Assembly (NCBI GenBank): GCA_016926735.1
Contig: JAFGOA010000036.1
Coordinates: 33,821-97,820, forward strand
DNA from: Promethearchaeota archaeon
GTDB taxonomy: Archaea > Asgardarchaeota > Lokiarchaeia > Sigyniarchaeales > SOKP01
DNA: 64,000 bases
Direction: 5' to 3'
The position numbers were made by a program, and so were the translations under genes. Below, piece after piece: positions 16,118 through 30,512 of the stretch. The stretch's first letter is position 1; each line of letters begins with the position of its first letter. The notes under the pieces were generated by a model, which was not told where the DNA came from, did no database searches, and saw only the letters and a list, made by a program, of their open reading frames with translations.

Positions 16118-16681
16118 ATGAGTAATTCAAATATTGATATTGTTTTTAAAATATGTATTTTTGGGGATGGTGGTGTTGGTAAAACAACATTAATTAAGAG
16201 ATATTTAACTGGTTTATTTGATGATTCTACAGCTATGACTATTGGATTAGATTTTCATACAAAAAGAATCAAAATTAAAGATTTAAATATCGCACTTCAA
16301 GTATGGGATTTTGCTGGAGAAGAAAGATTTCGTTTTTTATTACCTTCTTATGTAGGAGGTGCAAATGGAGGATTATTTATGTTTGATATTACTCGATTTA
16401 CAAGTCTAAAAAACTTCCCTGATTGGTTAGAAATATTCAGAAATGGATATAATAAAAACAACAGTACAAATAATGTAGATTTAAAACTACCCGTGATTAT
16501 GGTAGGTGGAAAATCAGATCTAAATGATAGTCGAGCAGTTTCAATAGAGGATGCTGAGGAAATAGTGCAAAATGAAAATCTATATAGTTATATTGAATGT
16601 TCTTCAAAAACGGGTGAGAATATAGAGGAAATTTTTAATCAAATTGTATTATATCTGCTGAAAGTCTCAAATATATTTTAA
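16118..16681 (+). CDS. Rab-like small GTPase
   Basis: G1 GDGGVGKT, TIGLDF, WDFAGEERF, GGKSD, ECSSKTG; no C-terminal prenylation Cys. Confidence 0.92.
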   Translation: MSNSNIDIVFKICIFGDGGVGKTTLIKRYLTGLFDDSTAMTIGLDFHTKRIKIKDLNIALQVWDFAGEERFRFLLPSYVGGANGGLFMFDITRFTSLKNFPDWLEIFRNGYNKNNSTNNVDLKLPVIMVGGKSDLNDSRAVSIEDAEEIVQNENLYSYIECSSKTGENIEEIFNQIVLYLLKVSNIF

Positions 16682-21163: not shown

Positions 21164-21535
21164 ATGGCACAATCAACAGGAGGAACACTTGATAGTATAC
21201 TGAAGCAATTACTAGCTTCTATTCCAGAAGTCAAATCTGCAGCTATTGTATCCGTTGAAGGGCTTCCTATTGCCTCAGCTCTTCCACAAGGAGTAGATGA
21301 AACTCGTATTGCTGCTATGACGGCTGCAATCCTTTCCCTCGGAGAAAGGGCAGCCCATGAAATGCAAAAGGGAGATTTAGAACAAATAATGGTTAAAGGA
21401 AGCGATGGGGTACTTTTAGTATTAGCTGCGGGCCCAAATGCGGTTTTAACTGTCTCTACAACAAAAGATGTGAGATTAGGATTAATATTTCTCGACTGTA
21501 AGAGAACTTGTGAGAAAATAGCAAAATTAATATAA
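21164..21535 (+). CDS. Roadblock/LC7 (MglB-like) protein
   Basis: AAIVSVEGLPIAS, IAAMTAAILSLGERA, LGLIF; GGAG SD; higher GC than the flanks. Confidence 0.92.
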   Translation: MAQSTGGTLDSILKQLLASIPEVKSAAIVSVEGLPIASALPQGVDETRIAAMTAAILSLGERAAHEMQKGDLEQIMVKGSDGVLLVLAAGPNAVLTVSTTKDVRLGLIFLDCKRTCEKIAKLI

Positions 21536-21784: not shown

Positions 21785-24700
21785 ATGTGTGCTGAAAATT
21801 TTAGTAAACAACTGATCTCAAGATTTGCTGAACTGGAGTGTGAAAGACAATTATTTTTAGACATAGCTCGTAAATTTCCTGAGAAATGGTATATTGATCA
21901 AAGAAAAATTGAACCGGCCAAACATATTCGTAAAAAGGTTGAATTATTAAAAAGATTAGGAAAAGAATATGAGGATATTGTTTATTCTTATTTGTTAAAA
22001 CTAGAAGGTGTACAATATAATGACAGTGGCCCAAGAATAGTTGAGGATACCTATCTTAATCCTTTTTTATTTAAACAATTATATGAAGAGAAGAAAAAAG
22101 CTCATAATATAGATTTTATATTACTTGAATTTCAATATGAAATACCTGAATCATTTTTTCTCGATCTCTTTCCTTTAAAAAACAAAAATGATACAATACC
22201 TGTAAGTTATGCGGAACAAAGACCTGATATTATAGTTATAGGAAATTCTCTATGTAAAAATCAAGATTCTATTTTTGAATTAAAACCTAAAGGAATAATT
22301 AGAGAAGTTCCTAAAGAAGAATTAAACTATCGATATGGAATAAATATTATTGATATTAAAAATGTAAGAGAAGACCACATTGGAAAAAAACAATTTGTAG
22401 AGATTTTCTATTATCTTTATACCTTAAGTTATTATTTAGAGAATTATAATTTAGAGAAAAAATTCTTTATTAATATCGAATTCAATGGAATTTTTCCCAA
22501 ATATGATAATAAAATTTTAAAAGATATTCATTATCTAAATGATATTATAGATTTAACAATTTTAATTCATTGGAAAGAATCACATCAACTTTTTGTGGAT
22601 ATTATCGAAAAGATTAAGAATTTATGGTTAAAATCTCCAGTTTTAATTGATTCTATACCTGTGAATATTCAAACAAATTGTGGTTATTGTTTTTTCTTAG
22701 AGGATTGTAAAAAAACACTCGGATTTGATGGTATAAAAGAACCTAAAGATTGGTCATTAAAATTGTTACCGCACACATCTAATTCTATTTCCCAAAAATT
22801 AATTGAAATGAACTTTAATACTATTGCTGATGTTGCGAATAATATATATAAAATACCCATCAGTAGTACTCCTGAACCTATATATTCAGAAATACCTCTT
22901 CTAGAATTAAGAGCTAAATCTCTTTTATTGAATGAAGAAATTAATCCAAAATCAGGACTTATTTATACTTATTCACTCCCTAAATTTTCATCTTTCTCAG
23001 TTATTTTTGCAGTAGAAACTGATCCGGCTAATGAAAGAGTGTATGCAGCAGGTTTTCTTGTTGAAATGACAACTTCACCAAATGCCCCCTTTAGCACAGT
23101 ATTTGATAATTGGTGGTCTATTTGGAAAAGATCAATGATTAACAATACATCCCTTTCAGAAATTCAAAATGATCTAAATAGATATCTTATAAGAGAAATA
23201 TCAATAGAAGAGGTTAGTTGGTTTTTCAATCTTCTCAAAAAACTAAAAAATATGATTATACTTCTAAATGGTGAAGAAACAAAAAAAGGAAAAAAAAGAA
23301 AATCTACGTATGTTTTATATCAAATTTCTGCTGTTAATGAAGATCATACAAATAAGTCTGAAGCAAAATTTACGAAAGAAGTAATAAAAAAACTTCATTA
23401 TATCCTTGAGTTATGTAATACCGTGGAAAATTACGTAGTTGTTGAAGGTTTAAATTCAGGGGATTATTATGGACCATCAACTAGCTTTTTTTATTGGTCT
23501 AAGAGACAATTAGATAATTTTCAAGATATGTTGGAAAGAAATTTAGAGGAGATAGTCAAAGATATTCCTATATTCCGAAAATATCTCAAGATTTTATTTT
23601 TGTTTAATCCTTCTGACTCAGAGGTTACCAATCCATACCAACCAAAAAAATTATTTAATGTTCAAAAGTTTTGTGAAACAATTTTAGGAGTCCCTCTTAT
23701 TATTGGTTATACTTGGCATGAAATTGCATATAAACAATTGGGATTACGTTCTAATAAAGATTATTGGATTCCTCATTTTAATTATATGGATTTCAATAAT
23801 TGGTATGAAATGATATTAGAAGAAGATCCAAATAAGGTTGAAGAAATTAAAAATGAAATACGTAAACAAATTATGCATAAAATCAGAACAATTAATCGGC
23901 TTAGATTTAAATTTCAAACTGAAAGTAAACATGTAATTTCTAAACATGCCAATATTATTAGTAGAAATGTGATAAAAAGAACAATTTTAACCTCTGATTT
24001 TCATCCTATCGCAAAAGTTTGGTATTTATTCTCAAGATTAACAGGTGCTATAGATCAAATTGAAAAAACAGAAATTCGTACTACTTATCCTGAATTCAGT
24101 ATAGGTAAAATGGATGCTGCTAAAGTTAGTAATCTAAAATTGCATAAAATAAGTAATAAAACATACAATACATTTGAATTAAAGGACTTATCCAGTAATA
24201 TGAAAATTGATATTGGTGATAGATTACTATTGATTCCAGAGTTTAAAAGAGATATTAGCTCTAATAGACGATTATTTCCTTGGATAATTACTATAGATGA
24301 AATATTATGGTCCTCAAAAATTAATGGATATAGAGTAAAAACTAAACTTATTTTTAGTGAGAATAAAGGAGAAGATAAAATAAATGAACTTAAATTTGCA
24401 AATATAGAGACTCTAGATTGGTATCTATATCCTTTATCATTAGATGCTTGGTCAAGTAAATTATATAGCAATAATGGTTTATTAGAAAGAAATAATATTG
24501 GAAAATCATGGCTTGGCCATCTACTATCATATATATGGAATATTCAATCAAAAGACAAATTAAAATGGCCTGAGAACTGGGTTTTTTCTGGACCTTCTGT
24601 CTATCTATACACGCCACTCCAATTGAATAGAATTAAAGATAAAAATACAAAATTAGATAGTGTAGATTTATTATCTAAAATTTATCCGAATCCAGATCCA

Positions 24701-26272
24701 TCACAAAAAAAAGCTATTAATTTAGTATTAGAAAATATAATATCTGCCATTCAGGGACCACCTGGAACAGGAAAATCTCAGACAATTACAACTTTAATTG
24801 ATGAATACTATGAAAGATGTTTATTAAATAAAAAACATTCAATACGGATATTGATAACTGCATTCTCTTATGCGGCTCTAAGAGTTATAATAGACAAAAT
24901 TCGAAATGCTAAAGATACTTTTGGTAATCCCACAAGTATATCCAAGCTTCAAATGGTCTTTTTAAGATCAAAATACCAAAAACCTATTAAAAATAAAAAT
25001 GATGAGAGAAAAGTTGATGATCTTGTACGTGTTGGAAATTCATGGAAATTTAATGAGGAATCACGTATAGTCACAAATACAAATCCTCTTGAAAACTCCT
25101 TGGAAGATAATTTTATTATGTTTGCAAATGCTCATCAATTATATTATTTACCTGAACGAGTTAAAGATAATTTTTATTTTGATTTAATATGTGTTGATGA
25201 AGCAAGTCAACTCCCTGTTGATTATTTTATATCAAGTTTACAATTTTTAAAAAATAAGAAATTTTTTATGAAAGAACCAGAAAAGACATTAAAAACTAAA
25301 ATTGAGTCAAAAAATAATGAAATTCTTGGAGAACTAGAATTAAATTATGATGAAGATATAATTCCTACAAAAGTAATTATTGTAGGGGATTATAATCAAT
25401 TACCTCCTGTTCAACCTGTGCCTCCTCCTAAAAACCTCAAAATAATATTAGAAAGTCTTTTTGCTTATTATGTTAAAAATCACAAAATTCCTAATGTACA
25501 ACTCCAAATAAATTACAGATCGAATAGAGATATTGTGGAATATACATCCCAACTTGGTGTCTATAAGAATTTGAATGTAGATAAAAAAAATATTAACAAA
25601 TTACTTTTAGGTGATTTAGAAAGAGTTAAAAAAGATTGGGTTAAAAAAATGTTAGATCCAAAAAAAGCAGTTATCACTATAATACATAATAGAAATTATG
25701 AGATTGGAATAAGTACTTTAGAATCTAAAATTGTAGTAAATCTCCTTAAAGGTTATTTTTCGATGATTAATCCTAAAAATGAAGAAGAGGAAAGAATATT
25801 TTGGAAAGAGTATGTAGGAGTTGTAGCACCTCATAATGCTCAAGGAAGATTAATTATTCGGCAGATACACGATGAATTAACAAATAATATTGAGCCTATT
25901 TCAAATCTTGAACATTCAGAGTTAATGTTCCTATTAAAAAACTCTATTTATTCCGTAGAAAAATTTCAAGGTTCTGATAGAGAACTAATCATTTCATCAA
26001 TTGGCCTTTCAGATCGAGATCAAATCTCTGCTGAAAGTGAATTTATTTATGATCTTAATAGATTCAATGTTCTTACTTCAAGAGCAAAGTCTAAAATTAT
26101 TTTAATAGCTAGTAAAAGATTTCTTAAATTTATTCCCAATAATAGAGAAATTATGAAAGAAGCTGCTCAAATAAGAAGATTTGCGTACGAATATTGTAAT
26201 AATTTTATAAATATTCAATTAAAAAATGAAAAAAATAAGAATGAAAAAGTACAATTAAGATATAAACATTAA
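21785..26272 (+). CDS. Fe-S PD-(D/E)xK nuclease plus RNase H-like domain plus SF1 (Upf1/Dna2-like) helicase fusion
   Basis: C19 and C299-xx-C302-x5-C308; RPDII and IIDIK nuclease motifs; QGPPGTGKS, DEASQ, GDYNQLPP, NYRS, VAPHNAQ, VEKFQGSD, RFNVLTSRAK helicase motifs. Confidence 0.88.
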   Translation: MCAENFSKQLISRFAELECERQLFLDIARKFPEKWYIDQRKIEPAKHIRKKVELLKRLGKEYEDIVYSYLLKLEGVQYNDSGPRIVEDTYLNPFLFKQLYEEKKKAHNIDFILLEFQYEIPESFFLDLFPLKNKNDTIPVSYAEQRPDIIVIGNSLCKNQDSIFELKPKGIIREVPKEELNYRYGINIIDIKNVREDHIGKKQFVEIFYYLYTLSYYLENYNLEKKFFINIEFNGIFPKYDNKILKDIHYLNDIIDLTILIHWKESHQLFVDIIEKIKNLWLKSPVLIDSIPVNIQTNCGYCFFLEDCKKTLGFDGIKEPKDWSLKLLPHTSNSISQKLIEMNFNTIADVANNIYKIPISSTPEPIYSEIPLLELRAKSLLLNEEINPKSGLIYTYSLPKFSSFSVIFAVETDPANERVYAAGFLVEMTTSPNAPFSTVFDNWWSIWKRSMINNTSLSEIQNDLNRYLIREISIEEVSWFFNLLKKLKNMIILLNGEETKKGKKRKSTYVLYQISAVNEDHTNKSEAKFTKEVIKKLHYILELCNTVENYVVVEGLNSGDYYGPSTSFFYWSKRQLDNFQDMLERNLEEIVKDIPIFRKYLKILFLFNPSDSEVTNPYQPKKLFNVQKFCETILGVPLIIGYTWHEIAYKQLGLRSNKDYWIPHFNYMDFNNWYEMILEEDPNKVEEIKNEIRKQIMHKIRTINRLRFKFQTESKHVISKHANIISRNVIKRTILTSDFHPIAKVWYLFSRLTGAIDQIEKTEIRTTYPEFSIGKMDAAKVSNLKLHKISNKTYNTFELKDLSSNMKIDIGDRLLLIPEFKRDISSNRRLFPWIITIDEILWSSKINGYRVKTKLIFSENKGEDKINELKFANIETLDWYLYPLSLDAWSSKLYSNNGLLERNNIGKSWLGHLLSYIWNIQSKDKLKWPENWVFSGPSVYLYTPLQLNRIKDKNTKLDSVDLLSKIYPNPDPSQKKAINLVLENIISAIQGPPGTGKSQTITTLIDEYYERCLLNKKHSIRILITAFSYAALRVIIDKIRNAKDTFGNPTSISKLQMVFLRSKYQKPIKNKNDERKVDDLVRVGNSWKFNEESRIVTNTNPLENSLEDNFIMFANAHQLYYLPERVKDNFYFDLICVDEASQLPVDYFISSLQFLKNKKFFMKEPEKTLKTKIESKNNEILGELELNYDEDIIPTKVIIVGDYNQLPPVQPVPPPKNLKIILESLFAYYVKNHKIPNVQLQINYRSNRDIVEYTSQLGVYKNLNVDKKNINKLLLGDLERVKKDWVKKMLDPKKAVITIIHNRNYEIGISTLESKIVVNLLKGYFSMINPKNEEEERIFWKEYVGVVAPHNAQGRLIIRQIHDELTNNIEPISNLEHSELMFLLKNSIYSVEKFQGSDRELIISSIGLSDRDQISAESEFIYDLNRFNVLTSRAKSKIILIASKRFLKFIPNNREIMKEAAQIRRFAYEYCNNFINIQLKNEKNKNEKVQLRYKH

Positions 26273-26290
26273 ATTTACTTTGAGAATTAT

Positions 26291-27784
26291 ATGACGAATA
26301 TAAAATTCCTACATATTGCTGATATTCATCTTGGTAAAAGGCAGTATAATCTTAAAGAAAGATATTATGATTATTTCCGTGTTTTTAAATCAATTTTAGA
26401 AAAATCCATTGAAAAAGAAGTGGATTTTATTTTAATTTCAGGAGATCTGTTTGATAACAGAAAAATAGGTCCTATTGTTTTAACTGATGTTTTTAATATC
26501 ATATCTAAATTTAAAGAGAGAGCTAAAAATAAATTAAATCGAGATATTCCTCTAATCTGTATTGAGGGGAATCATGATAATCCTATTTATTCAACTCAAT
26601 CTTGGATGACATTCCTCGCAGATCTAGAACTAATTATCCTTCTATCTGGAAAATATGATAAAAATACAAAAAAAATAATTTTTGACCCATATGACTCTAA
26701 AACTCGACGAGGAGGAAAAATAAAAATAAAAAACATAACAATATATGGTCTCCCATTTTTTGGCAGTTCTACCGCTCATATTTTTCCTCAAATCTATGAT
26801 GCAATAGAACAAAATAATGAGCAATCTAATATTTTAATGATGCATTTTGGAATTCAAGGAAATGATCCTATAAAATCAGGAATAGAAATATCTGAAAGCT
26901 TAAATAAATTAAGAGAAAAAATAGATTATCTTGCTTTAGGTCACTTTCATAAACAATATATACTTCCTAAGAAAGATCCTTGGATCTTTAATCCGGGAAG
27001 TCTAGAAATTAATGATATTAAAGAATTATTTGAAAATTATGAAAGGGGAGCCTTTATAGTAAAAATTTTAGGAAAAGAGATTTATCATGAAGAACTAATT
27101 TGTGAAATAGGAGATAATAATAGTAATATGATTTCTAATAGAAATTTTAAACTTCTTTCTCCAATAGATATTGGTGAAACAAAATCATTTAAAGAAACAA
27201 TTGTTTTAATATTAGATTCCTTGATAAAAGATCTCCCTGAAAAAAAATCCAATTTATCAAAATCAAAAGATGATCTCAACTGTCCAATCGTTATTTTTTC
27301 TATAAAGGGACAAATTCCATATTCAAGATTGGAAGTAAATATAAATCAATTAAAAGGGGAAATTATGAATAAATTTTCAATTCTTGATGTAAGAATTTTT
27401 TCAACATATCTCATATCAACATTAGATGATATTATTATATCTGAAGAAAAAAAAACTATAGAAGAGATTGAAACGGATGTATTTAATGCAATTTTAAGTG
27501 AAAATCCTCTCTTTAAAGGTATTGAAAGTGACACAATAGCATTAATGAAAAATATAAAATTTGGTCTAATTGAAAAATCTCCAAATTATTTTGAAATAAA
27601 AGAGTCTATAAAAGATTGGTTTATGTCGTATGTTGATAAATTCGACTTACCAAAAATTAATATTTTTACAAAGAGTAAAAAAATCAAGGAAGAATCATCA
27701 GAAGAGAATAATGAGGAGGAGATAGAAGAGAATATTCAAGATGAATTCGATTTGGATGAATATATAGATGATATTGACAATTAA
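26291..27784 (+). CDS. mre11: Mre11/SbcD nuclease
   Basis: DIHLG, GDLFD, GNHD, MH and GHFH phosphoesterase motifs; acidic tail. Confidence 0.92.
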   Translation: MTNIKFLHIADIHLGKRQYNLKERYYDYFRVFKSILEKSIEKEVDFILISGDLFDNRKIGPIVLTDVFNIISKFKERAKNKLNRDIPLICIEGNHDNPIYSTQSWMTFLADLELIILLSGKYDKNTKKIIFDPYDSKTRRGGKIKIKNITIYGLPFFGSSTAHIFPQIYDAIEQNNEQSNILMMHFGIQGNDPIKSGIEISESLNKLREKIDYLALGHFHKQYILPKKDPWIFNPGSLEINDIKELFENYERGAFIVKILGKEIYHEELICEIGDNNSNMISNRNFKLLSPIDIGETKSFKETIVLILDSLIKDLPEKKSNLSKSKDDLNCPIVIFSIKGQIPYSRLEVNINQLKGEIMNKFSILDVRIFSTYLISTLDDIIISEEKKTIEEIETDVFNAILSENPLFKGIESDTIALMKNIKFGLIEKSPNYFEIKESIKDWFMSYVDKFDLPKINIFTKSKKIKEESSEENNEEEIEENIQDEFDLDEYIDDIDN

Positions 27785-27800
27785 AGAGGAAAAACATAAA

Positions 27801-30512
27801 ATGCTTATAACTAAAATTGAATTAAAGAATATTACAACTCATAAAAAAACGTTAATTGAATTTCAGAATGGATTGAATTTATTATTTGGAAATAATGGTA
27901 CTGGTAAATCAACTGTTCTTAATATGATTGGATATGTACTATTTAATTATCTTCCAGGGAAGCAAGAGAGCTACGTTCGTCAAGCTAAACGTGGAGAAAT
28001 AAAACATGGGATGATAAAAGTCTGGGTTGTTGGTTTAGATGATGAATTATATATAATAGAAAGAACATTAGGAAAATCTAATCCTAAAATTCAGATTAAA
28101 TATGGATATACAGATTTAATTGTTCCCGGAGTAAATAATAAAATGGATTTAGAAGAATGGGTAAAAATTCAATTAAAATTAAATCCAGAAACTAATTTAT
28201 CCGATCTTTTTAAAACATCTATTGGTGTACCTCAAGGAACATTTACACAACCTTTTTTAGAAACCCCTCAAAACAGAAAGAATTTTTTTGATCCTATTCT
28301 AAAGGTTGATGTATATAGGAAAATTTGGAAGAATTTTTTAAATATTATTAAAGAATTAGATAATGATATAGTTGAAATAAAACTTAAAAAAGAAAAATTA
28401 GAAGGACGATTAGAACCTATAGATGAGATAAAGAATGATAATGACCAATATATCTTAAAATTAAAAAAATCAGAAAGACAATTAACCAATATTAAAAAGG
28501 AATTAGAATTATTAGAAAGAAAAAACAAGGAATACAAAAAAATAGATGATGAATTAAAAGAAAAAAATATTCTGAAAGATCAGATATTAAATCAAAAAAA
28601 TGAATTATATGAAAATCTAAAATCAATAAAAAATAAATTAGAAACAGCTCGAAAAGCTGGTGCTATTTGTGATAAAACCTTAAATGATTATGAAAAATAT
28701 GAAGATTATCTAAAAGAGGAACAAAAATTAAAAAAATTAAATGAAGAACTAATTGATTTGAATAAAAATTATAATAAATTAAACCAAAAATTAATTCAAT
28801 TGAAGAGTAATAGAGAAGAAAATCTTAATGAAATATCTGAAATAAACAAACAAAAAAAATCCTTTTTAGAGTTAGAAAAAAATTATGAATTATCACAACA
28901 CCTAAAAGGAGAATATGAGACTTTAATGGGAAAAAAAAAAGAAATTATTATCTATGAAAAAGACCTTGAAGATTTTAAAATAAAAAATGTTGAAATTACT
29001 AAAAAAATAGATGAAATTGAAAAGAAATATGATAATTACTCTGAATTAAAAAAAAAAAAAGAGATATTAGACAATAAGAAAGAATTAAAACATACATTAG
29101 AAATCAATATAAGTAAACTCGAAACTAGAATAAAACAGCTTGAAGAGAATAAGATTCAATCCAAGGGAGGTATTTGTCCAATATTAAACGAACAATGCCG
29201 TAATATAGGAAGTAAATCTTTTAATGAAATATTTCAAAAAGAATTAGATGTATTAAATAAAGAATTAAAACCCGAATTAAAAAAAAGAAATGAAATTGAT
29301 AAGGAATTAAAAGAATATGATATAATAAATAAAGAAATTAATAAATTGGATGAGCTAAAAGTACAATTAGATCTTCATAAGGAAACAAAACTTGAGATTG
29401 GAAAAAACATAAGACATCTTATTGATAAAACAAAAGAAAAGCAAGAAATAATAAGTAAATTAGATGATTATAAAAAAAAAAAAGATGAATTGGAATCAGA
29501 TATCGAAAAATTTAATGTATATAAAGAAAAACTCTATGTTGATTTACCAAAAAGGAAAAAAAAAATAGAGGATTTGAACAATAAAATCATCCCATTACAA
29601 GAAGAACTAAAACCTCTCAGAGAAAGAATTGAACATCTTGAAGAAAATCCTGAGAAATTAAAACTTATTAATATAAAATTAAATTCATTGAAAGAAAATC
29701 ATGATCTATATTTATCTAATAAGGATATTGCCAGAACTGTACAAGAACTAGAAAAAGAACAAAATATTATAGAGGAGAAATACAATAAATTGGAAAAAAA
29801 AAATCAAGGAATAATGAGTGAAATAGAAAAAATAAGTAAGACATATGATAGAAACGATAAAGAAAATGTAGAAAAAAGATTTTTGAGTCTTAAAGAAGAG
29901 CAAGGAAAGATCTTAGAATCAATTAATGATTCAAAAGATAGATTAAAGGAGATTAACAAAAAATTAGAACAACTTAAGAAGATTGAAGATAATTTAAAAA
30001 TTACTATGGATAAATTAAAGACATTAGATTTTATTAAAGATATTTCTGAAAAAATTCGCTCATATTATAAAATAGCAGGTCCAAAAATTGCAGAAACGTT
30101 ATTAAAACATATTAATGCCGAAGCTACTAACCATTATAGGTCTATTATGGAAGATCATAATGTAATTTTAACATGGGAAGATGATTTTCTCATAAAAATA
30201 AAAACAAATCAAAACGAAAAAGAATTTACTCAATTATCAGGTGGAGAACAAATGATCGCTGCTTTAGCAGTACGATTGGCAATCTTGAATGTACTCTCTA
30301 ACGCAGAATTTGCTTTCTTTGATGAACCAACAATGAACTTAGATCCTGAGAAAAGAGAGAATTTAGCTAAAATAATCCCAAGAATAAAAGGCTTTAGACA
30401 ACTCTTTTTAATTACTCATGATGATACCTTTGAGGAAAATGTTGATAATGTAATTAAATTCTCTAAAGATGATAATGAAATAACACAAGTAGAATGTTTC
30501 ACAAAAAATTAG
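27801..30512 (+). CDS. rad50: Rad50/SbcC SMC-like ATPase
   Basis: Walker A GNNGTGKS, Q-loop VPQG, long coiled coil with central CPILNEQC, LSGGE, FDEP, ITHD; ATG at 27801 after GAGGA. Confidence 0.93.
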   Translation: MLITKIELKNITTHKKTLIEFQNGLNLLFGNNGTGKSTVLNMIGYVLFNYLPGKQESYVRQAKRGEIKHGMIKVWVVGLDDELYIIERTLGKSNPKIQIKYGYTDLIVPGVNNKMDLEEWVKIQLKLNPETNLSDLFKTSIGVPQGTFTQPFLETPQNRKNFFDPILKVDVYRKIWKNFLNIIKELDNDIVEIKLKKEKLEGRLEPIDEIKNDNDQYILKLKKSERQLTNIKKELELLERKNKEYKKIDDELKEKNILKDQILNQKNELYENLKSIKNKLETARKAGAICDKTLNDYEKYEDYLKEEQKLKKLNEELIDLNKNYNKLNQKLIQLKSNREENLNEISEINKQKKSFLELEKNYELSQHLKGEYETLMGKKKEIIIYEKDLEDFKIKNVEITKKIDEIEKKYDNYSELKKKKEILDNKKELKHTLEINISKLETRIKQLEENKIQSKGGICPILNEQCRNIGSKSFNEIFQKELDVLNKELKPELKKRNEIDKELKEYDIINKEINKLDELKVQLDLHKETKLEIGKNIRHLIDKTKEKQEIISKLDDYKKKKDELESDIEKFNVYKEKLYVDLPKRKKKIEDLNNKIIPLQEELKPLRERIEHLEENPEKLKLINIKLNSLKENHDLYLSNKDIARTVQELEKEQNIIEEKYNKLEKKNQGIMSEIEKISKTYDRNDKENVEKRFLSLKEEQGKILESINDSKDRLKEINKKLEQLKKIEDNLKITMDKLKTLDFIKDISEKIRSYYKIAGPKIAETLLKHINAEATNHYRSIMEDHNVILTWEDDFLIKIKTNQNEKEFTQLSGGEQMIAALAVRLAILNVLSNAEFAFFDEPTMNLDPEKRENLAKIIPRIKGFRQLFLITHDDTFEENVDNVIKFSKDDNEITQVECFTKN

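Follow-up and report, generated by a model that had tools for sequence, protein, structure and literature searches.

Within 64,000 nucleotides of the genome of a Promethearchaeota archaeon of the class Lokiarchaeia (Asgard archaea; GenBank assembly GCA_016926735.1, contig JAFGOA010000036.1, positions 33,821 to 97,820; the whole of this stretch is referred to below as the window), three co-oriented genes encode a multidomain nuclease-helicase of 1495 residues (P0001), Mre11 and Rad50. With a probability of roughly 0.6, we read this trio as a module for DNA-end resection, the nuclease-helicase standing in the operon where HerA-NurA would stand and probably also taking over their role. In other archaea this task falls to HerA-NurA, and in eukaryotes to Dna2 together with a RecQ helicase. 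For the Asgard archaea, a 2026 review of NurA describes resection as 'completely uncharacterized' and asks whether Exo1 or Dna2 replaced NurA (PMC13748450), and no published description of this operon was found by full-text literature searching. The resection reading is favoured by the following evidence: the gaps are tight and the gene order is conserved amid varied flanks, with the sole Mre11, Rad50 and AAA_12 helicase of the genome placed in one operon; genomes of the same order that lack the helicase carry herA beside orthologous mre11-rad50 genes; and the nuclease, iron-sulfur (Fe-S) and helicase residues are invariant, while a homologue in one Heimdall lineage independently came to stand before mre11-rad50.

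Conservation of the operon and complementary occurrence with herA

The open reading frame (ORF) of rad50 begins at 27768 or 27801 (Table 1), and the ATG at 27801 is the most likely start, since an AGAGGA ribosome-binding site lies upstream of it and the resulting 903 residues agree with the length of the orthologues. Counted from this start, the genes are separated by 18 nt (26273-26290) and 16 nt (27785-27800), which bears out the three closely spaced, co-oriented genes of the original prediction, and a T-rich run is found just after the rad50 stop codon. A genome-wide search detected one Mre11 and one full-length Rad50, both encoded in the operon, and P0001 is likewise the sole AAA_12 (Upf1-type) helicase of this genome. 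Judged by their family matches, both Mre11 and Rad50 belong to the archaeal type. Mre11 matches Metallophos at 60.5 bits, and its best families are Mre11_Pyroc (107 bits) and Mre11_Sulfo (104 bits), both below their equivalog cut-offs of 500-600, as against 43.6 bits for sbcD. Similarly, Rad50 covers positions 1-868 of the 878 in PRK03918 at 181 bits (below the cut-off of 700), as against 41.8 bits for sbcC, and it contains the Walker A, signature and Walker B motifs within a split ABC head, a long coiled coil and a central zinc hook.

The family of the nuclease-helicase was searched for in 400 genomes of the phylum and is present in 52 of them, whole genera being without it; the named genomes gave 63 loci. 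Using the N-terminal region as query, 77 full-length relatives were found, all of them Asgard or marine-sediment sequences, and an exhaustive HMMER search over 1.84 billion representatives gave 149 matches. With the helicase core as query, 381 proteins passed E <= 1e-20; the 120 top-scoring ones all belong to the same family. At each of the 14 fetched loci of the same order the helicase gene is followed by mre11 and then by rad50 on the same strand, and at two further loci the C-terminal end of the helicase stands at the contig start, before mre11-rad50. The trio occurs in 24 named Promethearchaeota records, including Promethearchaeum syntrophicum MK-D1, whose operon has two genes inserted, Lokiarchaeum ossiferum and Harpocratesius repetitus; the median gaps over 25 loci are 21 nt and 5 nt.

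An unrooted FastTree phylogeny of 51 full-length family proteins gathers the linked genes into one Lokiarchaeial clade of 26 rows with a support of 99, and 25 of these 26 are linked. The three-gene linkage is thus conserved in relatives, and this part of the original prediction stands. Helicase identity inside the clade goes down to ~40 %, and one genome (G229), nested within it, has the helicase alone. Unlinked on the tree are a Lokiarchaeial paralogue clade, a Myxococcota clade (support 100) and Heimdall/Kari sequences; the paralogue clade and most of the Heimdall/Kari homologues are stand-alone genes. In one Heimdall lineage (L151), a homologue precedes a canonical mre11-rad50 pair with a CPVC hook, a placement which arose independently. 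The flanks of the trio vary by genus and include UvrD, BacA, a glycosyl hydrolase, a glycosyltransferase, an ABC transporter, an amine oxidase and ribosomal S3Ae. As the flanks differ between genera and the trio remains constant, it is the trio that selection holds together, not the region.

Full-length homologues are also found in metagenome-assembled genomes (MAGs) of Myxococcota (Myxococcaceae, Polyangiales and Bradymonadales among them). Across all domains their identity is 24-29 %; they keep all of the catalytic and Cys residues, and lie on contigs of 47-73 % GC and up to 432 kb in length. These copies (L120, L123, L126, L129, L131-L134, L139, L142, L144, L147 and L150) always stand alone amongst unrelated neighbours such as a symporter, an esterase, HipA and ClpB. 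On the evidence of these alignments, the family is shared in full length between the Asgard archaea and one Myxococcota clade.

Neither herA nor nurA was found within the operon or adjoining mre11-rad50. The absence of HerA/NurA claimed for this locus consequently holds for the operon and fails for the genome, in which contig C147 has a nurA-herA pair and C110 a single nurA; a second mre11-rad50-herA-nurA locus was looked for, and the nurA-herA genes were found to lie apart from the single mre11 and rad50. Amongst relatives, the helicase and herA-linked mre11-rad50 show complementary occurrence. Genomes of the same order without the helicase have either herA-mre11-rad50 (G280) or mre11-rad50 followed by two ORFs and herA (G134), and Heimdall-type genomes retain herA-mre11-rad50. 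Mre11 of G280 shares 30-36 % of its residues with the linked type (E 1e-58 to 1e-75), and its herA-linked Rad50 (L084) has the C-P-x5-C zinc hook which, in place of the canonical C-x2-C, is seen in 20 of the 21 Lokiarchaeial operon Rad50s. The Mre11 identity and the common hook indicate that the mre11 and rad50 genes are orthologous and that the partner gene differs. By the same comparison, the operon pair is taken to be the ordinary Mre11-Rad50 of the lineage. When the flanks of the G280 herA locus were compared with those of a small sample of helicase-linked loci, no shared gene except Mre11 was seen.

Domain organisation of the nuclease-helicase

Residues 1-330 matched no Pfam family at E <= 10, including Cas_Cas4 (PF01930), PDDEXK_1 (PF12705) and Dna2 (PF08696), and a profile of 19 N-terminal nuclease domains detected no PDB sequence at E <= 10. 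Residues 1-950 gave no Pfam or NCBIfam match, and separate N-terminal pieces gave noise alone in Pfam. An AlphaFold model of residues 1-950 was built on 41 homologues, with a predicted local distance difference test score (pLDDT) of 86 and a predicted template modelling score (pTM) of 0.83; a Foldseek search with this whole model returned nothing below E 0.001. For the nuclease domain, which reached a pLDDT of 91 when modelled alone, the best Foldseek match is Cas4 (probability 0.98). Structural comparison of the domain gave Z scores of 10.8 (root-mean-square deviation 4.8, 199 residues aligned) and 9.5 for Cas4, followed by MGME1 (8.0), RecE (7.8), AdnAB (7.5), AddB (7.4), Dna2 (7.4) and Exo5 (7.1), and the top 20 structural rows are all RecB-type nucleases. 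In the longer model, residues 3-318 align to Cas4 (VIA-align).

The motifs of this domain, E115, D148, D190-x-K192 and Y210 (Q/H-x3-Y), are invariant or nearly so in the 41 and the 51 aligned homologues, and D148, D190, K192 and Y210 are invariant in the 51-row alignment of Asgard and Myxococcota proteins. Cysteines C19, C299, C302 and C308 (C...C-x2-C-x5-C) are kept in 47-51 of the 51 rows, the gaps being truncated rows. The four-Cys 'iron-staple' nuclease of the PD-(D/E)xK type suggested for this protein is thus real at the level of the modelled fold and the conserved motifs, and the four-Cys pattern predicts an Fe-S cluster in the domain.

The nuclease domain is followed by a short helical linker, labelled helix-hairpin-helix-like (HhH-like) from the appearance of its sequence, and by a domain with a DEDD/DnaQ fold. 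Residues 400-729 match PolB exonuclease domains (Z 12.4-11.5), MrfB (11.4) and RNase T (10.6) in VIA-align, and 3'hExo is also among the structural matches, which overall span Z 12.4-10. Conserved residues of this domain are E411, D413, E526, E548, H664 and D669, without a clear placement for the Exo II Asp. The Asp of the first DEDD motif is Ala409 in P0001, and as this first catalytic Asp has been replaced the domain may only bind DNA; position 409 is Asp in 19 of the 51 homologues. It is kept in 5 of the 25 Mre11-linked and 14 of the 26 unlinked proteins, rows which are not independent, and a loss of this residue tracking Mre11 linkage was considered too weak to retain.

A protein-language-model search placed the N-terminal 760 residues nearest to TM0106/RNase_H_2 clusters with scores of 0.93-0.95. 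Like the TM0106 family (TIGR03491), P0001 has a Cas4-like nuclease (3-318) followed by an RNase H-like/DEDD domain (400-729), but it is ~900 residues longer, with a barrel/stalk and a superfamily 1B (SF1B) helicase, and it gave no sequence match to TIGR03491, PF13482 (RNase_H_2), PF12705 or PF01930. Kinship with the TM0106 family is thus a lead. The inserted RNase H-like domain of the original prediction is upheld as a DEDD fold, and the TM0106 resemblance attached to it is kept at the strength of this lead.

Ahead of the helicase core, the model suggests a beta-barrel and a helical stalk with a weak Foldseek resemblance to Sen1/Setx, Dna2, Upf1 and Aquarius. Residues 970-1450 match Pfam AAA_12 at 69.6 bits and AAA_11 at 56 bits. 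Walker A (GPPGTGKS, 991-998), DEAS (1138-1141) and the motif VI arginine R1433 are readily located, and with motifs I, II, III, V and VI intact and K997, D1138, E1139, Q1205, R1245, R1399 and R1433 invariant in the 51 rows, this is the complete Upf1/Dna2-type SF1 helicase that had been proposed. Nuclease, Fe-S-cysteine and helicase residues are thus all invariant across the Asgard and Myxococcota homologues.

Table 1. Genes of the operon and the features assigned within their products (positions are those of the window)
Feature	Position	Strand	Basis
Gene 1, multidomain nuclease-helicase P0001, 1495 residues	21785..26272	+	ORF and translation
P0001 residues 1-330, predicted Cas4/RecB-type PD-(D/E)xK nuclease with four Cys	21785..22774	+	Model, structural matches, conservation
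P0001 residues 333-382, short helical linker, HhH-like	22781..22930	+	Helices 333-341, 347-356 and 367-382 in the model
P0001 residues 400-730, DEDD/DnaQ-fold (RNase H-like) exonuclease-type domain	22982..23974	+	VIA-align
P0001 residues 740-950, putative beta-barrel and helical stalk	24002..24634	+	Model; strands 779-853
P0001 residues 960-1460, Upf1-like SF1B helicase core	24662..26164	+	Pfam AAA_11/AAA_12
Gene 2, Mre11, 497 residues, all phosphoesterase motifs	26291..27784	+	Pfam/NCBIfam
Acidic C-terminal tail of Mre11, motif DLDEYIDD	27692..27781	+	Motif comparison
Gene 3, Rad50, 903 residues from ATG 27801	27801..30512	+	NCBIfam PRK03918; ribosome-binding site upstream
Rad50 zinc hook, non-canonical C-P-x5-C (CPILNEQC)	29175..29198	+	Motif

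End resection and its alternatives

In the resection reading, Mre11-Rad50 would find and clip DNA ends, whereupon the 1495-residue enzyme would load on the 5' strand, translocate 5'->3' by its SF1B motor and feed that strand to the Fe-S Cas4-type nuclease, so that a 3' tail would remain for RadA. The DEDD-fold domain would trim or hold the 3' strand, and the protein would contact Mre11-Rad50, possibly through the acidic tail of Mre11; the helicase polarity, the resection activity and this contact are what we infer. The motif D[LI]D.[YFIL]IDD occurs in 15 of the 25 helicase-linked Lokiarchaeial Mre11s, and linked Mre11s of family f1 end in the acidic motif tail. Canonical herA-linked Mre11 lacks this tail, as does the Promethearchaeum genus, whose operon is interrupted. 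That the tail may act as a docking peptide is a speculation drawn from this pattern.

Some observations weigh against the resection reading. The family stands alone in Myxococcota, in most of the Heimdall/Kari genomes and in one Lokiarchaeial paralogue clade, from which it follows that Mre11-Rad50 is not needed for its basic activity. Many complete Lokiarchaeial genomes are without the helicase, the linked Mre11 type and the long Rad50, making the module dispensable. As nurA-herA is present elsewhere in the genome, 'replacement' fits the operon and not necessarily the function. Exceptions to the linkage also occur, G229 having the helicase alone and G254 a second mre11-rad50 without a helicase.

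The main rival, which we consider clearly less probable, is that the nuclease-helicase is a general maintenance enzyme acting alone on flaps, R-loops, stalled forks or single-stranded DNA gaps, and in Lokiarchaeia is merely co-regulated with mre11-rad50, perhaps as part of one DNA-damage regulon, with no common resection machine. The same unlinked homologues speak for it, as does a helicase equally near to IGHMBP2, Dna2 and Upf1, which act on varied substrates. Additionally, as the sole Upf1-type helicase in a genome of family f1, which is without Dna2-type proteins (0/134 genomes), the enzyme could cover Dna2-like replication roles. Nevertheless the genes have stayed adjacent across deep divergence and a turnover of the flanks, and gaps of ~20 nt speak for more than loose co-regulation; the swap with herA at orthologous mre11-rad50 genes points to the resection step.

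The original prediction had also offered a defence system with Mre11-Rad50 as the sensor of DNA ends. Against viruses, such a sensor of foreign ends would recruit a nuclease-helicase effector to destroy the invading DNA, in the manner of RecBCD, Lamassu or the single-protein Prometheus system. This is improbable, although the family is patchily distributed (52/400 Asgard genomes, with whole genera lacking it), one paralogue has a Schlafen/AlbA_2 gene as its neighbour and one Myxococcota copy has HipA. Partial PADLOC matches were obtained for the helicase core (MkoA 111 bits, DpdJ 76 bits) and for Rad50 (LmuB 93 bits); the LmuB match, however, covers the head only, whereas the protein is an archaeal Rad50 end to end at 181 bits, and Mre11 has no PADLOC match. 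ProA of Prometheus resembles P0001 in being a large protein with a Dna2-type nuclease and an SF1 helicase that is reported in Lokiarchaeia, and Prometheus variants without DUF4011 or DUF3320 are reported from Lokiarchaeales in a 2026 survey (PMC13700489); these may include this family. P0001 differs in having neither DUF4011 nor DUF3320 and in reaching 38 bits with ProA NF058533, against a cut-off of 1500, on the P-loop (residues 970-1007) only, and a genome-wide NF058533 search found no ProA in this genome. In contrast to typical defence genes, the family has one copy per genome and a tree that agrees with taxonomy. The GC content is uniform across the window, and housekeeping genes and eukaryotic signature proteins (ESPs) surround the trio here and elsewhere. 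Between the two functions first proposed, resection is therefore favoured and defence is left with little support, given the sole Mre11-Rad50 of the genome in the operon, the vertical-looking inheritance and the housekeeping flanks here and in five other genera.

In a last reading, the large Asgard protein would be directly orthologous or ancestral to eukaryotic Dna2, and the MRN-Dna2 pathway would descend from the operon. The shared layout, in which an Fe-S PD-(D/E)xK nuclease comes ahead of a barrel/stalk and an SF1B helicase, suggests it, and eukaryotic Dna2 has been related, in a statement without more detail, to 'some Asgard homologs' (PMC12680538). With mouse Dna2, P0001 reaches 35.6 bits, the same as with yeast Nam7/Upf1, and the family profile detects IGHMBP2 (70 bits), Dna2 (68.8 bits) and Upf1 (61 bits) in the PDB. 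P0001 has no match to the Pfam Dna2 domain (PF08696) at E <= 0.1. This domain is found instead in separate Asgard proteins of ~1000 residues, composed of Dna2 (52-66 bits), PDDEXK_1 and AAA_11/12, which occur in 31/31 genomes of family f13, 10/12 of f15, 11/22 of f16 and 0/134 of f1. Both helicase families co-occur in f15 genomes. One genome (G053) encodes a member of each, and its ~1000-residue protein, whose helicase core is 21 % identical to that of P0001, matches mouse Dna2 at 185 bits. Since both coexist in one genome and the shorter matches Dna2, the ~1000-residue family is the Dna2-type protein. With the nuclease also closer to Cas4 (Z 10.8) than to Dna2 (Z 7.4) and an inserted DEDD domain that Dna2 lacks, orthology to Dna2 is very improbable. 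By these scores the 1495-residue protein resembles Dna2 in layout and is not its orthologue; the analogy that had been suspected from the beginning is thereby strengthened (36 bits, level with Upf1, against 185 bits for the ~1000-residue proteins).

Among known resection systems, the herA-mre11-rad50-nurA operon of Sulfolobus, Pyrococcus and Thermococcus similarly encodes an archaeal-type Mre11-Rad50 with a motor and a nuclease; there these are a hexameric FtsK/HerA ATPase and a NurA dimer, whereas P0001 joins an SF1B helicase and a Cas4-type Fe-S nuclease in one polypeptide. MRN/MRX-Dna2 likewise combines an Mre11-Rad50 complex with an enzyme in which an Fe-S PD-(D/E)xK nuclease precedes an Upf1-like 5'-3' helicase. 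This likeness is limited, as the layout is common to other families and is insufficient alone, and P0001 differs in being non-orthologous, in its extra DEDD-fold domain and in having no RecQ partner gene nearby. AddAB, AdnAB and RecBCD also resect ends with motors fused to RecB-family nucleases, with an Fe-S cluster in AddB, and AdnAB and AddB are among the structural matches of the nuclease domain (Z 7.4-7.5), but their motors are of the SF1A (UvrD-like) type, their nucleases are C-terminal, and they act as heterodimers or heterotrimers without Mre11-Rad50.

Going further than the module itself, and tentatively, Lokiarchaeales may have a third kind of end-resection machine. A Cas4-like nuclease for the 5' strand and a DEDD nuclease for the 3' strand would share one SF1B motor docked on Mre11-Rad50, perhaps at the acidic tail of Mre11. 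Such a machine would have displaced HerA-NurA from the operon, would be parallel and not ancestral to MRN-Dna2, and would belong to a family exchanged between Asgard archaea and Myxococcota.

Locus context, related proteins and significance

The window has a GC content of ~25 % throughout and lies on contig C16 of a 3.88-Mb assembly which is 99.3 % complete. Roadblock and URO-D genes neighbour the trio upstream, and small ORFs, DUF359, Kae1 and Bud32 downstream; with these, a Ras-family GTPase, Roadblock/LC7 and a HAD hydrolase, the surroundings consist of housekeeping genes and ESPs and contain no defence island. The Ras-family small GTPase (16118-16681) and Roadblock/LC7 (21164-21535) upstream of the operon are typical Asgard ESPs and flank it likewise in a genome of the same genus (G158). 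In G227, of another genus, the nuclease-helicase is preceded on the same strand by a gene for a UvrD/Rep-type SF1A helicase (L050:2558-4714), a possible extra repair association of that genus.

Proteins related to Mre11 are found outside the operon as well. Most Lokiarchaeial genomes have a solitary Mre11-like phosphoesterase of ~395 residues (L067:9639-10802, L068, L071-L074, L080 and L081), 35-39 % identical to the operon Mre11, and its gene adjoins a PHP-domain gene (f1) or a HerA-like gene (f3) and never rad50; the genome studied here is without one. In two MAGs of the Promethearchaeum genus the Mre11 match falls inside open frames of 1367 and 1297 residues (G141:C262:8500-9861 and G140:C244:4410-5777), which points either to fused Mre11 and Rad50 or to the loss of a stop codon; in P. 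syntrophicum MK-D1, mre11 and rad50 are separate and 11 nt apart.

The Rad50 hooks of Harpocratesius and of Heimdall-type genomes are of the CPxC form (CPVC, CPTC and CPKC). Lokiarchaeial genomes without Mre11-Rad50 encode Rad50-like ATPases of ~700 residues, whose heads correspond to positions 1-330 and 660-857 of the Rad50 model (G206:C15, G188:C1:3339736-3341799, G204:C17, G147:C25 and G249, with up to four copies), and one such ATPase lies at C41:78255 in the genome studied here. Additionally, a second, weakly Rad50-like ORF of 838-863 residues lies ~300 nt downstream of the operon in one Lokiarchaeial subclade (L101:19104-21695, L105:19123-21639 and L143:19086-21626) and is absent from this window.

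Three of the Asgard Dna2-type proteins of ~1000 residues were scanned (L165:3890-6874; L167:1531-4521 and L168:2076-4976, both on the minus strand), and two of them have a C-terminal RING finger. No such RING finger is known from eukaryotic Dna2.

The operon makes the question of how the archaea closest to eukaryotes process DNA breaks testable with recombinant proteins and in existing cultures. The order to which the cultured P. syntrophicum MK-D1 and L. ossiferum belong pairs Mre11-Rad50 with a Dna2-style nuclease-helicase and not with HerA-NurA, and the 1495-residue enzyme is a previously uncharacterised and probably alternative machine for trimming broken DNA ends. This Lokiarchaeial, Dna2-like solution of parallel origin is thereby set apart from the true Dna2-type proteins of Heimdall-related lineages, and the family shared with Myxococcota adds one gene family to the debate on gene flow between the two groups.

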